Below are positions 2 to 51,475 of a stretch of DNA of 64,000 nt, in pieces. Under the pieces are notes generated by a model that had not been told where the DNA came from, searched no databases, and was given only the letters and a program-made list of their open reading frames with translations. Source of the DNA: a virus (lineage: Duplodnaviria > Caudoviricetes); IMG/VR virus record IMGVR_UViG_3300044297_000138, positions 96,001-160,000 of that record, one strand, 5' to 3'. Made by a program: the position numbers and the translations under genes. Position 1 is the first letter of the stretch. Every line of letters begins with the position of its first letter.

Positions 2-148
2 GAAGAAGTTAAGAATAAAACAATTGACTTTAGATTAGAACATGTAGTATACTCCTATACTCCAGCTGAAGATTTCAAACAGAATTATGATTCTATTTTT
101 GGTCTTGGCCTAGTTCTCCCTGGCCAAAAGAAGATTATTACAGGATAA
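2..148 (+). CDS. 3' end of hypothetical protein upstream of DNA polymerase (partial)
   Basis: Open frame EEVKNKTIDF...GQKKIITG* whose TAA overlaps the polymerase ATG (TAATG). Confidence 0.6.
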   Translation, partial: EEVKNKTIDFRLEHVVYSYTPAEDFKQNYDSIFGLGLVLPGQKKIITG

Positions 149-1449
149 TGACAAAAAACTTTTATACAAATGTCCAATCTGTCGGCGGTAAAATTCTATA
201 CCGTGGTGTACGTGGCGGTAAAAAAGTCAAAATAAAAATTGACTATGAACCGAAGTTGTACTTGCCGGCCACAAAAGTTGCGACACACAAATCACTTGAA
301 GGCAAACCTTTAGTTGAAAAGAAGTTTGATTCTATTTTTGAAGCAAGAGATTACATCAAAAAATTTCAAGATGTTTCTGGTGCACCAAAAATCTATGGTC
401 AAACTAGATACGAGTATGCATTTATTGCCGAACAACATACAGATATGGTTGAGTGGGACCAAGATAAGATTGATGTTGGCATCATTGATATTGAGGTTGG
501 ATCAGAAAATGGATTCCCTGATCCATATCTAGCCAATGAACCAATCACAGCTATCGCCTGGAAAACACTTGGTGGTCACATGCATGTTTGGGGTTGTGGT
601 GAATTTAATAATGAAACTCCTGATGCAGTTACCTATCACAAATGTAGAGATGAATGGTCTCTTTGTAAATCATTTATCACCGCATGGTCAACCAGAACAC
701 CAGATGTATTGACCGGTTGGAACACCAAGTTCTTTGATGTGCCTTATCTTGTCAATCGTTTTCGCAAAATCCTTGGTGAAGATGAAGCCAAGAAAATGTC
801 GCCTTGGAACTTTATCTCTGAACGCAAGACTGTTATTAATGGTCGTGCAATGACAGCATATGGTTTCCTTGGTGTTGAACAACTTGATTATATTGAACTA
901 TACAAATGGTATGCACCGGGTGGTAAGTCACAAGAATCATATCGTTTGGATAATATTGCAAACGTAGAAATCGGTGAAAGTAAAATCTCATACGATGAAT
1001 ATGATAACCTGCATCAACTCTACCGATTAAACTTTCAAAAATTCATTGAGTATAACATCAAAGACGTTTTGCTGATTGAAAAGATGGAAGATAAACTAAA
1101 GTTGATTGAACTTGGCCTAACTCTGGCCTATGATACGAAATGCAACTATGAAGATATCTTTGCACAGACTCGTATGTGGGATTCAATGACATATTCCTAC
1201 CTGTACAATCAAGGCATCATTGTTCCACCAAGAGAAGTGCAAGACAAAGATTCTGCATTTGAAGGTGCTTATGTTAAAGAAGTTCAGGTTGGTAAACACG
1301 ATTGGGTTGCCTCGTTTGACTTGAATAGTCTCTACCCACATTTGATGATGCAATATTCCATTTCGCCTGAAAATCTGGTGGAAAGAAGTTATATTGATGA
1401 AAGAAAACGCAAAGTATTAGAGGAATTGAAGCTTAGAAATACTAAATAA
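148..1449 (+). CDS. 43: Family B DNA polymerase gp43, N-terminal half (3'-5' exonuclease plus start of palm; gp43A-like)
   Basis: ExoI DIEV, ExoII GWNTKFFDVPY, ExoIII YNIKDV, motif A SFDLNSLYPH; stops shortly after motif A. Confidence 0.95.
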   Translation: MTKNFYTNVQSVGGKILYRGVRGGKKVKIKIDYEPKLYLPATKVATHKSLEGKPLVEKKFDSIFEARDYIKKFQDVSGAPKIYGQTRYEYAFIAEQHTDMVEWDQDKIDVGIIDIEVGSENGFPDPYLANEPITAIAWKTLGGHMHVWGCGEFNNETPDAVTYHKCRDEWSLCKSFITAWSTRTPDVLTGWNTKFFDVPYLVNRFRKILGEDEAKKMSPWNFISERKTVINGRAMTAYGFLGVEQLDYIELYKWYAPGGKSQESYRLDNIANVEIGESKISYDEYDNLHQLYRLNFQKFIEYNIKDVLLIEKMEDKLKLIELGLTLAYDTKCNYEDIFAQTRMWDSMTYSYLYNQGIIVPPREVQDKDSAFEGAYVKEVQVGKHDWVASFDLNSLYPHLMMQYSISPENLVERSYIDERKRKVLEELKLRNTK

Positions 1450-1473
1450 GTAGATGAGGTTACTTATTTGGAG
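1441..1473 (+). promoter_or_regulatory. Late-promoter-like box (ACTAAATA) inside an 11-bp hairpin that pairs with the RBS of the HNH gene
   Basis: CTAAATAAGTA (1442-1452) pairs with TACTTATTTGG (1461-1471, one G-U); GGAG at 1470-1473 precedes ATG 1479. Confidence 0.65.
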
Positions 1474-1478
1474 AATCT

Positions 1479-2012
1479 ATGAAATACAATATCACTAAGG
1501 ACAAACTCTACGAATTGTTTATTACCAAAAATATGAGGCGCAATGAGGTTGCCGATTATTTTGGATGTTCTGAGGCAAACATCAAAAAATACCTACAAAA
1601 ATTTGACATAAAGAAGCCTTTTGTGTTAGAATGTAAAAACAAAGAACGCAAGGCCAAGGTCAAGTGTTTACATTGTGGTGAAGAATATGAAACACAACAG
1701 TTTAGAACTGAAAGTGAAAAATATGATTCAAAGTATTGTAGTTATTCGTGTGCTCAAAAGAGTAGGTATTTGGGTGAAGAACATAAGCGTAGAATCAGGA
1801 ATGAAATTGCTGCAAGACGCAGAGCCAGAATCCGTAATCAAACACCAGATTTGACTAAGGAAGAAAAGCAGAAATTGCAGGAATATTATTTGATTTGTCC
1901 AAAAGGACATGAAGTAGACCACATACAAGCAATTGCAAAAGGTGGTTTACATCATCCGGATAATTTACAAATATTGACTATGACAGAAAACAGAAAGAAG
2001 TGGTGCAAATGA
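1479..2012 (+). CDS. HNH (homing-type) endonuclease with N-terminal HTH-like and Cys-rich segments
   Basis: C-terminal EVDHIQAIAKGGLHHPDNLQIL HNH motif; CxxC...CxxxC; sits at the polymerase split. Confidence 0.85.
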   Translation: MKYNITKDKLYELFITKNMRRNEVADYFGCSEANIKKYLQKFDIKKPFVLECKNKERKAKVKCLHCGEEYETQQFRTESEKYDSKYCSYSCAQKSRYLGEEHKRRIRNEIAARRRARIRNQTPDLTKEEKQKLQEYYLICPKGHEVDHIQAIAKGGLHHPDNLQILTMTENRKKWCK

Positions 2013-2278
2013 ATGAACGAATCAAACAGATGGCAACAGAAGTTGGCATTAGTGTTGAATACCTAAACAACACAAAGCAGTGGGAGTTAATTGAAGCATT
2101 AGCCGAACGAATTGTAGACGATTGTATTGAAGTTTGTAAAAGCCGTGTGGGTAATAGTGATTACAATACAGGTAGATTACATTGTGTCAGTGATATACGA
2201 GAACGCTTTGAATTCGGTATGAGCACAGAAGATAAAAAGACCCTAATCAAAGAACTATTGGGAGTGAAGAATGACTAA
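2009..2278 (+). CDS. Small phage protein, MNERI.../(F)AELIV.EC paralog family
   Basis: MNERIKQMA...LAERIVDDCI; similar to ORFs at 2271, 49559 and 51182. Confidence 0.7.
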   Translation: MNERIKQMATEVGISVEYLNNTKQWELIEALAERIVDDCIEVCKSRVGNSDYNTGRLHCVSDIRERFEFGMSTEDKKTLIKELLGVKND

Positions 2279-2477
2279 ACTATTAGAAAGCCTTGCTGTA
2301 CAAAGTCTTGTAGAACACGATGGCGAGTTGATTTTCAGCAAAGAACTCTATGCGGCACTGGTCGTCAAAGAATGTATTGATATCATTGATTCTACACACG
2401 GTAGCAAGAAACTACTTCGTCCAGAACCGTATCAACAGATTGTAGATAATATTCAAGAACATTTTGGTGTTGAATGA
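2271..2477 (+). CDS. Small phage protein, AELIV.EC...HFGVE paralog family
   Basis: LYAALVVKECI...IQEHFGVE; GGAG RBS. Confidence 0.7.
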   Translation: MTKLLESLAVQSLVEHDGELIFSKELYAALVVKECIDIIDSTHGSKKLLRPEPYQQIVDNIQEHFGVE

Positions 2478-2746
2478 TGCGTGATTCAGATGTAAAAAGA
2501 GAGATTGAACGAATGATACAACATCGTTCAAACACTAACAATCCTATTGATTTTCCTATCTCGCCAGCAAATATGCGAGCCAGATGTGAAGCATTGATTA
2601 CAGCGATGGTCGGAGCAGATTTGGCATCTAAATGGTGGAACGGACCCAACCAAGCATTTGAAGGGCACACACCCGAGGAGATTTATAGTGTGGCACCTTC
2701 GGCGGTGTATGCTTATCTAATGAAGTCAGCAGAAGGAGAATGGTAA
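2474..2746 (+). CDS. Xre/MbcA/ParS antitoxin C-terminal-like (DUF2384-like) protein
   Basis: ASKWWNGPNQAFEGHTPEEI...VYAYL fits the W-x3-PN-x-A-F/L-x-G-x-TP signature. Confidence 0.55.
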   Translation: MMRDSDVKREIERMIQHRSNTNNPIDFPISPANMRARCEALITAMVGADLASKWWNGPNQAFEGHTPEEIYSVAPSAVYAYLMKSAEGEW

Positions 2747-3057
2747 TGATTGACTACTATGAAGCACTGAAAGAAATGCACCAAGGTAATGTGGTCAAAT
2801 ATGTTGGTACTGTGAATGGCAATGTAATGAGCAACAATGGTGCCAGTTTCTGTATGTGTCGTGGTTGTATCTTTCTATTTGATAATGGAGTAATCAAATG
2901 GGACAAGTTAGGCTACATGGTTTACGATCCAGATTTTCGTTATGAACTAACCGGCGAAACTGTAAATCCGAGGGCGTGGAAACCAGAAAAGAAAACGGAC
3001 CGTAAAGAGATTAAATCCAAGTTAGGTTATAGTAGAATAGGATTGGATAATGTTTAG
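2740..3057 (+). CDS. Hypothetical protein
   Basis: AGGAG RBS; translationally coupled on both sides. Confidence 0.7.
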   Translation: MVMIDYYEALKEMHQGNVVKYVGTVNGNVMSNNGASFCMCRGCIFLFDNGVIKWDKLGYMVYDPDFRYELTGETVNPRAWKPEKKTDRKEIKSKLGYSRIGLDNV

Positions 3058-4429
3058 AGATGTAAAAGAAATGACAATTGAAGAACTTGAGAGAGAACTT
3101 CATGCACTTGAGTTGTTTCAGAATGAAATTGGTAAAGTTGGTGTAAACTCAATGTTATCTAAGAGTGTTGACACATCATTTTTGCAACCAATGCAATGCA
3201 CAATAACACCCAATGGTCAACTATTCAGGATTGACCGACAAGGTTTCTTACCTAAGATGATGGAAGAAATGTATGAGGATCGTAAGAAGTTTAAGAAGAT
3301 GATGTTGAAAGCACAACAGGAGTATGAGAATGAAAAAGATGAATCCAAAAAATATGATATTGAAAAACGAATCGCCAGATACAACAACCTACAGCTCGCC
3401 AAGAAAGTTTCTCTCAATTCTGCTTATGGTGCTCTTGGTTCTCAGTATTTCAGATTTTATGATTTGCGTATGGCTCTTGGTGTTACTACTGCTGGCCAAC
3501 TATCTATTCGGTGGATAGAAGCCAAGATAAATGATTACTTGAACAAACTATTGAAAACGAATGAAGATTATGTTATCGCCTCAGACACAGATTCAATTTA
3601 TCTCAAGCTTGGTCCACTTGTTGACAAAGTGTATGGTGCAGGACAAGATAAATCTGTCTCTACAAGAATTGACAAACAAAAGGTTATTGATTTCATGGAT
3701 CGTGTATGCGAAGATAAAATACAACCGTATATTGATAAAAGTTATCAAGAGCTTGCTAATTATGTTAATGCGTATGCACAGAAAATGCAAATGAAGCGAG
3801 AAGGCCTATCAGACAAAGGTGTATGGACTGCCAAGAAAAGATACATTCTAAATGTATATAATAACGAAGGTGTTCAGTATGCCGAACCTCATATGAAAGT
3901 GATGGGTCTAGAAATGGTGAAGTCATCTACACCATCGGCAATCCGTGAAAAGATGAAAGAAACAATTCAGTTGATGATGACTGGCACAGAAGAAGAGGTG
4001 CAACAGTTTATTGCCAAGTTTAGAGAAGAATTTAAATCATTGCCACCCGAAGAAATTTCTTTTCCAAGAGGTCTGAATGGGCTAAATACTTATTCCGATT
4101 CGGTGACTTTATATAAAAAAGGAACTCCAATTCATGTTCGTGGTGCAATCGTCTACAATCACCACCTCAAACAACTTGGTTTAGAAAAGAAATACCAAAA
4201 GATTCAAGAAGGTGAAAAGTTAAAGTTTACCTATTTGAAAATGCCAAATCATTTCAAAGAAGATGTAATTTCGTTTCCTGCCAGAATTCCCAAAGAATTT
4301 GGGCTTGACGAATATATTGATTATGACTTACAATTTGATAAGGCGTTTCTAGAACCCATCAGGATTATTTTGGATTGTATGAATTGGAAAGCCGAAAAAT
4401 CAAATTCATTAGAAGATTTTTTTAGTTGA
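3050..4429 (+). CDS. 43: Family B DNA polymerase gp43, C-terminal half (fingers, palm, thumb; gp43B-like)
   Basis: Motif B KVSLNSAYG, motif C ASDTDSIY, KKRY, C-terminal clamp-binding SLEDFFS. Confidence 0.95.
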   Translation: MFRDVKEMTIEELERELHALELFQNEIGKVGVNSMLSKSVDTSFLQPMQCTITPNGQLFRIDRQGFLPKMMEEMYEDRKKFKKMMLKAQQEYENEKDESKKYDIEKRIARYNNLQLAKKVSLNSAYGALGSQYFRFYDLRMALGVTTAGQLSIRWIEAKINDYLNKLLKTNEDYVIASDTDSIYLKLGPLVDKVYGAGQDKSVSTRIDKQKVIDFMDRVCEDKIQPYIDKSYQELANYVNAYAQKMQMKREGLSDKGVWTAKKRYILNVYNNEGVQYAEPHMKVMGLEMVKSSTPSAIREKMKETIQLMMTGTEEEVQQFIAKFREEFKSLPPEEISFPRGLNGLNTYSDSVTLYKKGTPIHVRGAIVYNHHLKQLGLEKKYQKIQEGEKLKFTYLKMPNHFKEDVISFPARIPKEFGLDEYIDYDLQFDKAFLEPIRIILDCMNWKAEKSNSLEDFFS

Positions 4430-4439
4430 AGGATAAAAC

Positions 4440-5495
4440 ATGAGTATACTTGATAAGATTAAAAAGAATAGTTCAATCAAAGATTCGGCTATTCTATCCA
4501 AATCAAAATTTTTCACGCAAAAGGATATGATTCCCACATCCGTACCAGCAGTTAATGTTGCTTTGTCTGGTAAGTTGGATGGAGGTCTAACTCCCGGTCT
4601 TACAATGTGGGCAGGTCCATCCAAACATTTTAAGACTGCATTTTCTTTACTGATGGCCAAATCTTATATGGACAAATATGAAGATGCTGCATTACTTTTC
4701 TATGATTCCGAATTTGGTACGCCTCAGTCTTATTTTGATTCCTTTGGTATTGACACAGACAGGGTGCTCCATACTCCTATTACAGACATTGAACAGTTGA
4801 AGTTTGATATTATGAATCAACTCACCAATCTTGAACGTGGTGAACATCTAATTATTGTTGTTGATTCAATTGGTAACCTTGCATCCAAAAAAGAAGTTGA
4901 AGATGCATTGGATCAAAAGTCTGTTGCTGACATGAGCCGTGCCAAACAAGTTAAGTCTTTGTTCCGTATGGTTACACCTCACCTATCATTGAAAGACATT
5001 CCAATGGTTGTTGTGAATCACACCTATAAAGAAATCGGTATGTTCCCCAAAGATATCGTTGGTGGTGGTACAGGTTCTTATTATTCTGCCGATAATATTT
5101 TCATTCTTGGCCGTCAACAAGAAAAAGATGGAACCGAAATCACAGGATACAACTTCATCATTAACGTGGAAAAGTCCCGTTATGTAAAAGAGAAATCTAA
5201 GATTCCAGTTAATGTATCTTTTGACGGTGGTATTAACAAGTGGTCTGGCTTATTGGACATTGCACTTGAATCTGGCCATGTTATCAAACCAAGTAATGGT
5301 TGGTACAGCAAAGTGAATATTGAATCTGGTGAAGTGGAAGAAAAGAAATATCGTGAAAAGGATACTAATAGTTCTGAATTCTGGATTCCTGTTTTGAAAC
5401 AACAATCTTTCCGTGATTATGTGGAAAGCAAATATCGTGTAGCTGCATCAGAAATCTTACAAGATTCGGATATTGAAGAAACATTTGAGAGTTAA
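4440..5495 (+). CDS. uvsX: UvsX RecA-like recombinase
   Basis: AGPSKHFKT P-loop, FYDSEFG, DSIGNLASKKE, GGGTG. Confidence 0.95.
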   Translation: MSILDKIKKNSSIKDSAILSKSKFFTQKDMIPTSVPAVNVALSGKLDGGLTPGLTMWAGPSKHFKTAFSLLMAKSYMDKYEDAALLFYDSEFGTPQSYFDSFGIDTDRVLHTPITDIEQLKFDIMNQLTNLERGEHLIIVVDSIGNLASKKEVEDALDQKSVADMSRAKQVKSLFRMVTPHLSLKDIPMVVVNHTYKEIGMFPKDIVGGGTGSYYSADNIFILGRQQEKDGTEITGYNFIINVEKSRYVKEKSKIPVNVSFDGGINKWSGLLDIALESGHVIKPSNGWYSKVNIESGEVEEKKYREKDTNSSEFWIPVLKQQSFRDYVESKYRVAASEILQDSDIEETFES

Positions 5496-5497
5496 TA

Positions 5498-5821
5498 ATG
5501 ATAGAAGGTATTGATTACTGTTTCATCTATCCTAAAAATGATGGTACAGCAGTTCATATAAAATTTTTAGACGGACCTTATAAAGATACCGTTTTCAAAT
5601 ATGGCAAGGTAAAATTCAAGGAAGAAAACGACCAGGTCTATTTACTTTTTGCTTATGATGTGTTAGAATCACCAGTTAAGAAACCACGAAAATTGGAAAA
5701 AGATGGTGATTTTAAAAACTACATTGGTGACCTGTTGGTTGAACTAATGTCAGAAAACATGGAACAGGATATTATTGATGAAACTGGAACAAGCGATTCT
5801 GAAGAATCTAATTTACAATGA
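5498..5821 (+). CDS. Hypothetical protein in the T4 gene 40 position
   Basis: ORF between uvsX and gene 41; synteny only. Confidence 0.6.
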   Translation: MIEGIDYCFIYPKNDGTAVHIKFLDGPYKDTVFKYGKVKFKEENDQVYLLFAYDVLESPVKKPRKLEKDGDFKNYIGDLLVELMSENMEQDIIDETGTSDSEESNLQ

Positions 5822-7169
5822 TGAATACTTACGCAAGGTACTCCCTTTTATTAAAGCCGATTACTTCACGGATAGGACCGATAGAACAATCTTCAATGAG
5901 ATTTCAAAATTCGTTGAGGCTTACAATTCTACACCGACGATTGAAGCAATTGAATTGGCCATCAAAGAAAGGCGAAATCTCTCAAATGATGAAGTGGAGA
6001 AGTGCGAAACTTGTTTACAAGAGATTGTCAAAATTAAAGAAGAACAATCCAAGATTGACTGGTTGGTTGATAAGACAGAAAAGTTCTGCCAAGAGAAGGC
6101 CATATACAATGCAGTATTGGGGTCTATTTCAATCCTCGATGGGAAGGACAAAACCCAAGATAAAGGGTCCATACCTAAGTTACTTTCCGATGCCCTCGCA
6201 GTAAGTTTTGACAACTCGGTTGGACATGATTACCTGGAGAATAGTGATGAACGCTTTGAATTTTATCATAGAAAAGAAGAAAGAATTCCTTTTGACTTGG
6301 ACTACTTCAATAAGATTACTAAAGGTGGTCTTCCTATTAAAACTCTTAATATCGCTCTTGCTGGTACCGGTGTTGGTAAGTCTCTCTTTATGTGTCACGT
6401 TGCCGCTGGTTGTATGGTACAAGGCAAAAATGTATTGTATATCACTATGGAAATGGCTGAAGAAAAGATTGCAGAAAGAATAGATGCCAATCTTTTAAAT
6501 GTAAGTGTGGATGATTTGGTCAGCCTGCCAAAAGAAATGTATGACAAGAAGATAGAAAAACTCCGTGCAAAAACTGTAGGCAAACTTATCATCAAAGAGT
6601 ATCCAACAGCGGCTGCTTCCGTAACACACTTTAGGACCCTGTTGAATGAACTCAATCTCAAGAAAAGTTTTGTTCCTGATATTATCTTTGTGGATTACCT
6701 CAATATTTGTTGTAGTTCTCGTATTAAAGCCGGAGCTAATGTCAACTCTTATACCTATGTCAAGGCTATTGCCGAAGAATTGCGAGGTCTTGCCGTTGAA
6801 TTCGGAGTTCCAATTGTTTCTGCTACACAAACAACAAGGTCAGGTTATACAAGTTCCGACCCAGGACTGGAGGACACAAGTGAGTCTTTTGGTTTGCCAG
6901 CAACCGCCGACCTGATGTTTGCATTGATTTCTTCCGAGGAATTGGAAGAACTTGGACAAATCATGGTCAAGCAATTGAAGAATCGTTACTCTGATCCAAC
7001 AATGTATAAACGATTTACTATTGGTGTTGACCGTTCTAAAATGAAACTGTATGATGTGGAACAATCAGCACAAGATGGATTGGCTGATGCAGGTATTACA
7101 GATAAACCACTTAATACTTTTGGCAATCGTGAAATGAAGAAAGATAAATTTGATGGATTTAAAGTTTGA
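5775..7169 (+). CDS. 41: gp41 replicative DnaB-like helicase
   Basis: Walker A AGTGVGKS, ITMEM, VDYLNI, SATQTTR, SESFGLPATAD, KQLKNRY. Confidence 0.95.
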   Translation: MMKLEQAILKNLIYNDEYLRKVLPFIKADYFTDRTDRTIFNEISKFVEAYNSTPTIEAIELAIKERRNLSNDEVEKCETCLQEIVKIKEEQSKIDWLVDKTEKFCQEKAIYNAVLGSISILDGKDKTQDKGSIPKLLSDALAVSFDNSVGHDYLENSDERFEFYHRKEERIPFDLDYFNKITKGGLPIKTLNIALAGTGVGKSLFMCHVAAGCMVQGKNVLYITMEMAEEKIAERIDANLLNVSVDDLVSLPKEMYDKKIEKLRAKTVGKLIIKEYPTAAASVTHFRTLLNELNLKKSFVPDIIFVDYLNICCSSRIKAGANVNSYTYVKAIAEELRGLAVEFGVPIVSATQTTRSGYTSSDPGLEDTSESFGLPATADLMFALISSEELEELGQIMVKQLKNRYSDPTMYKRFTIGVDRSKMKLYDVEQSAQDGLADAGITDKPLNTFGNREMKKDKFDGFKV

Positions 7170-51181: not shown

Positions 51182-51418
51182 ATGAATGAACGAATCATAG
51201 AACTCGCTGAACAGGCTGGCGGCCATTATAGCCGTGAAGAATTGGAATTTGCCGTTGTGTTTGGTGAATTGGAAGATTTTGAAAAATTCGCTGAATTGAT
51301 TGTCCGTGAATGTATTGCAATATGTGAATCCGGCACACCAACGCAAACCACAAGCGGCGGGGCTGCGGAACTTATCAAACAACATTTTGGTGTTGTAACA
51401 AAACAACACAATACTTGA
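51182..51418 (+). CDS. MNERI.../AELIVREC paralog family protein
   Basis: MNERIIELAEQAG...EKFAELIVRECI...KQHFGV. Confidence 0.7.
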   Translation: MNERIIELAEQAGGHYSREELEFAVVFGELEDFEKFAELIVRECIAICESGTPTQTTSGGAAELIKQHFGVVTKQHNT

Positions 51419-51475
51419 CCAAAAAAACTGAGAACCTTTTACTTACATTGCCATTTCTGTTGGTTGTGATAGAAT
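51391..51475 (+). promoter_or_regulatory. Early promoter with TGTTG-N8-CAACA palindrome and upstream element
   Basis: TGTTGTAACAAAACAACA; AAAACTGAGAACCTTT (also at 43450); TTGCCA-16-TAGAAT. Confidence 0.75.

Follow-up and report, generated by a model that had tools for sequence, protein, structure and literature searches.

How a phage can replicate when the gene for its DNA polymerase lies in two pieces is the question raised by the opening part of the window analysed here, a stretch of 64,000 nucleotides (nt) covering positions 96,001 to 160,000 of the IMG/VR record IMGVR_UViG_3300044297_000138. The record (174,535 bases; rated 100 % complete by CheckV) represents a T4-like phage from freshwater metagenomes. 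Two open reading frames (ORFs), hereafter the N-half and the C-half, correspond to the two parts of a gp43 polymerase and are separated by 1600 nt holding five further ORFs on the same strand, chained to one another by overlapping stops and starts, the first of which is an HNH-type homing endonuclease gene (Table 1). Sequence comparison supports the interpretation of the two halves as a two-subunit T4-type family B DNA polymerase, the sole polymerase of this genome. It is furthermore probable that this is a working enzyme, split by a mobile endonuclease cassette which brought with it a basic tail for the N-half and an acidic head for the C-half.

The conserved motifs are distributed over the halves in gp43 order, with exonuclease motifs I-III and motif A on the N-half and motifs B, C and KKRY on the C-half, and motif A (SLYP) occupies residues 394-397 of the N-half, with the break approximately 30 residues beyond it. 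Within the 856 positions of PHROG 262 (DNA polymerase), the N-half covers 6-438 and the C-half 438-851, and jointly the halves extend from one end to the other of this family, as well as of Pfam PF03104 and PF00136. The N-half aligns to residues 2-431 of RB69 gp43, and comparison of the halves with the RB69/T4 gp43 structures gave E-values of 1e-60 and 1e-66. Given that the catalytic motifs are shared out between the halves, the active site is expected to be composite, with neither half able to polymerise alone. The C-half has its own ATG, which overlaps the stop of ORF 5 in the gap and is preceded, 7 nt upstream, by AGGA. The original prediction, made from the sequence of this DNA by itself, had placed the split just after motif A, with all catalytic motifs kept across the halves, a separate start for the C-half and 1.6 kilobases (kb) with five ORFs between them; each of these features was recovered, the ORFs lying exactly where it had put them. 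No second PolB and no PolA was found anywhere in the complete record, and this genome-wide absence rules out that the locus is a pseudogene or is accompanied by a second polymerase. The nearest named relatives are the gp43 proteins of cyanophages and of Melnitz (45-56 % amino acid identity), and megablast against named phages returned nothing useful.

What the split has added to the enzyme can be delimited by means of relatives with an uninterrupted gene. An IMG/VR scan based on the C-half yielded 80 loci, most of them unsplit; classification covered 72 unsplit loci, and in 51 distinct full-length genes the reading frame was confirmed to be open across the junction. In the unsplit relatives, the counterpart of N-half residues 1-426 runs in frame into the counterpart of C-half residues 30-459 with one residue between them. 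The additions thus comprise only residues 427-433 of the N-half (7 amino acids) and residues 1-29 of the C-half (29 amino acids), both of which are absent from all 72 classified unsplit loci. Among the unsplit loci, L002 shares 92 % protein identity with the window in the N-part and 96.5 % in UvsX. The original prediction had envisaged a helical extension on each half, to be checked by alignment with unsplit homologues; this alignment upholds the 29 residues of the C-half and the final seven of the N-half as extra, but residues 411-426 of the N-half, which had been counted as part of the extension, have a counterpart in the unsplit enzymes and are native in position. The charge of this native 16-residue segment ranges from -1 to -4 across 44 different unsplit alleles (mean -2.6), while that of the split alleles has been recoded to neutral or basic (mean approximately 0). 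The native segment shows a resemblance to residues 7-17 of the head as well, and in MAFFT alignments the native helix falls on the tail or on the head depending on the rows included, so that the two termini may descend from a duplicated copy of the native helix. Two mixed-row MAFFT alignments, A2 (full-length, read-through and half rows) and A3 (the read-through row and half rows), were misaligned and have been excluded.

The same junction occurs in a large number of other phages. More than 70 protein clusters (445-461 amino acids) span the whole C-half at 72-85 % identity and start with the same head, some of them on contigs of more than 150 kb. A scan of IMG/VR with the head alignment identified 48 loci with this junction, in 44 of which both halves were readable. 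The gap contains the HNH gene, alone or with a small ORF (including a counterpart of ORF 5 in L046), in approximately 28/44 loci, a GIY-YIG-like ORF instead in 7/44 and only a small ORF in 2/44, with the five-gene, 1.6 kb gap of the window being the largest seen. The gap is empty in a further 7/44 loci, where the stop of the N-half overlaps the start of the C-half by 1-11 nt in a different frame. In three of these empty alleles (L098, L099 and L105) the 3'-terminal bases of the HNH gene remain directly before the C-half ATG, and it follows that the endonuclease has been deleted while the split stayed. The unusual N-tail ends of L099 and L105 were also considered as possible remnants of the GIY-YIG-like ORF, and this was rejected as their nucleotide sequence derives from the 3' end of the HNH gene. 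Dozens of lineages have both halves intact. Taken with the lack of another polymerase and the persistence of the split beyond the endonuclease, this bears out the suggestion in the original prediction of a functional two-subunit enzyme, as far as sequence can indicate function.

Closely matched split and unsplit alleles suggest how the junction has spread. The N-half of the window is 83-97 % identical at the nucleotide level to the unsplit L002/L009 up to approximately nt 1130 of the gene, after which identity falls to 44-66 % and the sequence is instead 82-90 % identical to split alleles, which places the upstream crossover within or close to the conserved sequence coding for motif A. Similarly, the C-half shares 92-94 % identity with the split L001 over its first ~180 nt, and from approximately nt 850 it is again L009-like (90-97 %). 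L113, a split allele with the GIY-YIG-like ORF, is 87-100 % identical to the unsplit L059/L070 outside nt 1131-1308 of the N-half and nt 1-180 of the C-half; within these two tracts it shares 51-71 % identity with L059/L070 and mostly higher values with split alleles, reaching 88-97 % in the N arm. As these split and unsplit pairs differ only in a tract of ~180 nt on each side, the cassette appears to move together with tail and head by gene conversion. This tract pattern is, at the sequence level, the signature of homing with co-conversion, with cleavage itself presumed. On a FastTree phylogeny of N-half residues 1-372 (101 rows; tract excluded) at least 13 changes between the split and unsplit states are required, at least eight of which are forced by well-supported branches, and the nearest neighbour of the window is an unsplit allele (96 % amino acid identity). 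Synonymous differences among split alleles are ~0.7 per site, falling to 0.44-0.58 beside the junction. Unsplit relatives were probably also present in the same water as a phage identical to that of the window, given that in one freshwater DNA run (X4), with contigs identical to the window phage, other contigs skip positions 1355-3238 (from after motif A to after TPNGQ), although with flanks of only 20-21 nt this is weak.

The HNH ORF matches PHROG HNH/endonuclease VII families (E 4e-13) and, weakly, the Pfam HNH domain (E 0.003, below the cut-off), and its product is 83-95 % identical in the ~28 other split loci with this gene, where the polymerase halves are only 62-85 % identical. The GIY-YIG-like ORF of other alleles (for instance L084:2853-3368) encodes 171-180 amino acids and has a match at E 1e-6 to PHROG 314, a homing endonuclease family. 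The helix-turn-helix at the C-terminus of its product (L084:3231-3362) is 41 % identical over 44 amino acids (E 7e-9) to that at the N-terminus of the HNH protein (window positions 1479-1620), which suggests that a single DNA-binding module, directed at one and the same site, is common to the two nuclease domains.

In structural terms, the break falls between residue 431 and approximately residue 451 of RB69 gp43, in the first palm segment and before the fingers. The AlphaFold model of the unsplit L002 (mean pLDDT, the predicted local distance difference test score, of 65; locally 83-91) has a helix at residues 418-425, a four-residue turn, a helix at 430-434 and two strands, followed by the first finger helix, and in this model the break site corresponds to the turn of a palm helix-turn-helix, between motif A and the fingers. 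We propose that a cassette based on a homing endonuclease created the split in this turn. The mobile unit would comprise ~180 nt of recoded upstream sequence, the endonuclease gene with optional cargo, and ~180 nt of downstream sequence. The upstream part would extend the C-terminus of the N-half into a longer, basic helix, and the downstream part would give the C-half a new helix of 29 residues, acidic and amphipathic. The conserved motif A and TPNGQ coding stretches at the ends of the arms could provide the homology for double-strand-break repair, and a single gene-conversion event would convert a one-chain gene into two translationally coupled genes, supplying both new termini. The halves would reassemble via the native palm interface, and tail and head would help by packing on each other or on the body of the enzyme, in parallel with the tails of the NrdA protein of phage Aeh1 discussed below. 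A more elaborate version, a self-contained 'split-and-clasp' module in which one homing event makes a two-chain enzyme of a one-chain polymerase, the clasp stems from duplication of the palm helix onto both termini with subsequent divergence to opposite charges, and two endonuclease families with a common DNA-binding module alternate at the junction, is put forward tentatively, and we would sooner doubt than accept it in full.

The properties of the new termini bear on whether they contribute to the enzyme. The net charge is +1 to +4 for the tails (29 distinct alleles) and -2 to -5 for the heads (26 distinct alleles), and the isoelectric points (pI) are 9.8 and 4.6, respectively; the opposite charges described in the original prediction therefore extend to every tail and head. 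The ratio of non-synonymous to synonymous change (dN/dS) is 0.19 for the tail and 0.19 for the head, with 0.4-0.5 synonymous differences per site, such that many silent changes have gathered while the peptide was kept. Both are judged on this basis to be under purifying selection. Both are also predicted to be helical in the model of a split homologue, L119, described below. Furthermore, 14 of the first 29 columns of the head are invariant in seven loci, its hydrophobic seam is invariant, and its non-synonymous divergence (0.11) is as low as that of the enzyme core.

These observations have to be set against the alternative that the split enzyme works but that tail and head are passengers, representing leftover or duplicated target sequence, or recoding by which the allele escapes the endonuclease it encodes, and kept only through their position within the conversion tract, with the palm interface alone binding the halves. 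Low dN/dS despite the accumulated synonymous differences, the invariant seam and the opposite charges in 29/29 tails and 26/26 heads argue against passengers, as does the retention of the tail and head termini in alleles without an endonuclease. Several points nevertheless favour this alternative and weigh against a contribution of the termini. Fingertip-split gp43 and an engineered split Pfu polymerase assemble without added peptides, and the Aeh1 tails are not needed for the mutual binding of the two NrdA fragments, which heterodimerise without them (PMC3045599). Synonymous divergence is low near the junction, which marks the sequence as young, and part of the conservation may thus reflect recent spread rather than selection. 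For the coiled coil envisaged in the original prediction, the heptad fit of the tail is poor (hydrophobic residues at 3/5 a/d positions) and that of the head good (5/6). Finally, the structural predictions are mediocre. The split homologue L119 was folded as a read-through, with its 336-nt gap in frame and stops read as glycine, and the model (mean pLDDT 61, compared to 65 for L002) contains a 22-residue tail helix with a pLDDT of only 51-62 and a 20-residue head helix (pLDDT 72-79) running into the native second helix. Taking both sides into account, we regard passenger termini as unlikely, albeit a serious alternative.

The differences between tail and head could also be taken to mean that the head helix serves another partner, such as the polymerase body or a replisome protein, or that it acts at the RNA level, in coupled translation or control of the endonuclease. 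Amphipathic character is much stronger in the head than in the tail, the helix of the head is predicted with higher confidence than that of the tail in the read-through model, and in every case the start of the C-half adjoins or overlaps the stop before it. However, no such partner came to light, and a role at the RNA level would reduce synonymous rather than amino acid change, yet the ratio of non-synonymous to synonymous differences (pN/pS) is low. We consider this explanation very improbable, and tail and head which assist the reassembly of a split polymerase remain the preferred interpretation.

A two-subunit enzyme also presupposes that the single chain is not restored after transcription. 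Introns, inteins and the gene 60 bypass are known among T4-like phages, and RNA splicing, protein splicing or ribosomal bypass would each make the split only apparent. No group I or other Rfam intron family was, however, detected across positions 1200-3400, even at E-values up to 10, and with a gap filled with coupled ORFs a group I intron is ruled out. An intein or split intein is ruled out by additions that are too short (7 + 29 amino acids) and without intein domain or conserved junction residues, the residue before the conserved cysteine varying among alleles. Fusion by bypass or frameshifting is likewise rejected, given a gap of up to 1.6 kb and empty alleles without visible slippery or take-off/landing features. 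In the empty alleles, the overlap of stop and start by 1-11 nt in different frames leaves nothing to splice, and a protein search found no longer protein carrying the head, which is weak evidence by the search's own rating. The description of the split as free of intron and intein is hence sustained. No RNA-library contig joins the halves across the gap, although coverage in these libraries (X22-X24) is poor and their short contigs derive mostly from relatives; one 208-nt RNA-library contig, which may be DNA carry-over, spans the N-half stop into the HNH gene, as does a contig from an independent freshwater DNA run that is identical to positions 1333-1519. A restored single chain thus appears extremely improbable.

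The closest parallel to a polymerase split by a cassette that supplies its own termini is the nrdA-a/mobE/nrdA-b locus of phage Aeh1 (Friedrich 2007; PMC3045599), where an essential gene has similarly been cut by a free-standing HNH-family endonuclease, giving a composite active site without splicing. The insertion of mobE left a basic C-terminal tail on NrdA-a (pI 10.4, compared to 9.8 here) and an acidic N-terminal tail on NrdA-b (pI 3.8, compared to 4.6 here), which are essential for activity (Crona et al. 2011, PMC3045599). The authors called these tails an antidote to fragmentation, proposed that they come in with the endonuclease and predicted similar ones elsewhere. The remedy of adding tails upon endonuclease insertion is therefore not new, having already been demonstrated for Aeh1 NrdA. 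The two systems differ in the enzyme concerned, a ribonucleotide reductase in Aeh1 and a DNA polymerase here, and in that the Aeh1 tails are needed for dimerisation of the heterodimers. Furthermore, the tail described here consists in part of native sequence that has been recoded, and the single case of Aeh1 contrasts with a cassette seen moving repeatedly between alleles.

Split gp43 genes have also been published, as the original prediction stated with reference to Aeromonas phages, but at a different site. According to the accounts of Petrov (2006, 2010) given in PMC2988022 and PMC3061061, the bicistronic gp43A/gp43B genes of phages 44RR, 25, 31, 65 and 133 are all split in the fingertip. 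In these accounts, a T4-type PolB is likewise produced from two cistrons, set apart by a short untranslated spacer, with subunits that co-purify and are active, and in phage 25 a free-standing endonuclease lies between the cistrons, although an intron is present as well. The 43A protein of the 44RR record (498 amino acids) includes the first finger helix, and 43B starts in the fingertip after a short untranslated spacer of 49 nt. The break in the window is not of this fingertip type, as it lies ahead of the TPNGQ strand and of the finger domain. As the present break lies in the palm, ~65 residues upstream of that of 44RR, it would have arisen independently. The fingertip break is flanked by the natural finger helices, and no added tails would be needed there.

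Other systems share individual features with the split described here. The T4 topoisomerase genes 39/60 represent an essential replication gene that has been split by a homing-endonuclease element, mobA; extensions resembling tails, with charges distributed in a similar manner, were noted there by Crona et al. (PMC3045599), and the element is described as having inserted repeatedly at one site. This cassette, however, carries a 50-nt translational bypass, to which there is nothing comparable here. The fractured genes of Dassa et al. (2009, PMC2677866) have the same order of N-fragment, endonuclease and C-fragment in replication genes of environmental phages, but their fragments are rejoined by trans-splicing inteins, whereas the additions of 7 + 29 amino acids contain no intein motifs. 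Stable two-chain family B polymerases include the PhiKZ DNAP N + C (bioRxiv 10.64898/2026.09.30.755723), the Methanothermobacter PolB and that of phage RM378 (PMC3061061), which differ in being broken in the palm after the fingers, or between the N-terminal and palm domains, with no mobile cassette described.

The remaining ORFs of the gap are potential cargo, and no meaningful family match was found for ORFs 2-5 in Pfam or PHROGs. A weak paralogue of ORF 2 lies at positions 51182-51430 of the window (28 % identity, E 4e-4), and ORF 2 also resembles L123:3521-3724, the sole insert ORF of the split locus L123; ORF 2 and its relatives may constitute a family of small genes moving between variable regions. 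ORF 5 has a counterpart at the same position in L046 and L001. A second HNH-like ORF (L004:1699-2043), ~3 kb upstream of the polymerase, is 34 % identical to residues 63-174 of the HNH protein of the window. Downstream of the polymerase lies a replisome neighbourhood, with UvsX encoded at positions 4440-5495 (Pfam and PHROGs) and an ORF at 5775-7169 which resembles a gp41-type helicase by inspection only. The true start of the latter is uncertain, with the listed TTG start overlapping the preceding ORF (5498-5821) by 47 nt. The polymerase and uvsX genes are separated by ~10 nt in the window (4430-4439), L002 and L047, and by a variable insert of 1-1.3 kb in many relatives (e.g. L004:8357-9434 and L005:8273-9607), and this interval is a second insertion hot spot, adjoining the first. 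In L074 (7854-8898) the uvsX match consists of two pieces, residues 1-131 and 126-350, which overlap but lie in different frames; a frameshift, an error of sequencing or a further interruption could account for this.

Table 1. Coordinates of the split polymerase locus within the 64,000-nt window, with lengths in amino acids (aa)
Feature	Position	Strand	Description
N-half polymerase ORF	148-1449	+	433 aa; exonuclease domain and start of polymerase domain
Upstream arm of mobile tract	1270-1449	+	Similarity switches from unsplit L009/L002 to other split alleles
N-tail, native part (residues 411-426)	1378-1425	+	Homologous in position to short acidic helix of unsplit enzymes
N-tail, added part (residues 427-433) and stop codon	1426-1449	+	pI 11.2
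HNH-type free-standing homing endonuclease gene	1479-2012	+	177 aa; N-terminal helix-turn-helix module
Cargo ORF 2	2009-2278	+	89 aa from ATG overlapping the HNH stop; one sub-threshold Pfam helix-turn-helix match
Cargo ORF 3	2271-2477	+	68 aa
Cargo ORF 4	2474-2746	+	90 aa
Cargo ORF 5	2740-3057	+	105 aa; stop overlaps C-half start
C-half polymerase ORF (gp43B-like)	3050-4429	+	459 aa; rest of palm, fingers, thumb; motifs B, C, KKRY
C-head, 29 added residues	3050-3136	+	pI 4.6; acidic, amphipathic; absent from unsplit enzymes
Downstream arm of mobile tract	3050-3240	+	Ends near conserved TPNGQ coding sequence

The interpretation from which this analysis set out is thus partly supported, being right in outline, while its central step, the zipping together of the halves by their new termini, is neither new nor proven. 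What the locus contributes is a new site of breakage in gp43, clear before-and-after pairs of natural alleles, the two endonuclease families with a common DNA-binding module at one junction and the persistence of the split after loss of the endonuclease. A 2010 review of T4 mobile elements listed the assembly of endonuclease-split phage enzymes as an open structure-function question, and tests since then have been confined to the Aeh1 reductase. The near-isogenic one-chain and two-chain pairs, of which L113 and L059/L070 are the cleanest and the window and L009/L002 another, are distinguished chiefly by the cassette and the short arms that belong to it, making the role of tail and head directly testable. 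Freshwater viromes commonly contain polymerase ORFs of the size of the C-half, which should not be labelled as fragments or pseudogenes during annotation. At the population level, the split polymerases provide a view of what had only been proposed by Crona et al., with remedy peptides that travel in the conversion tract and a split that outlives the endonuclease.

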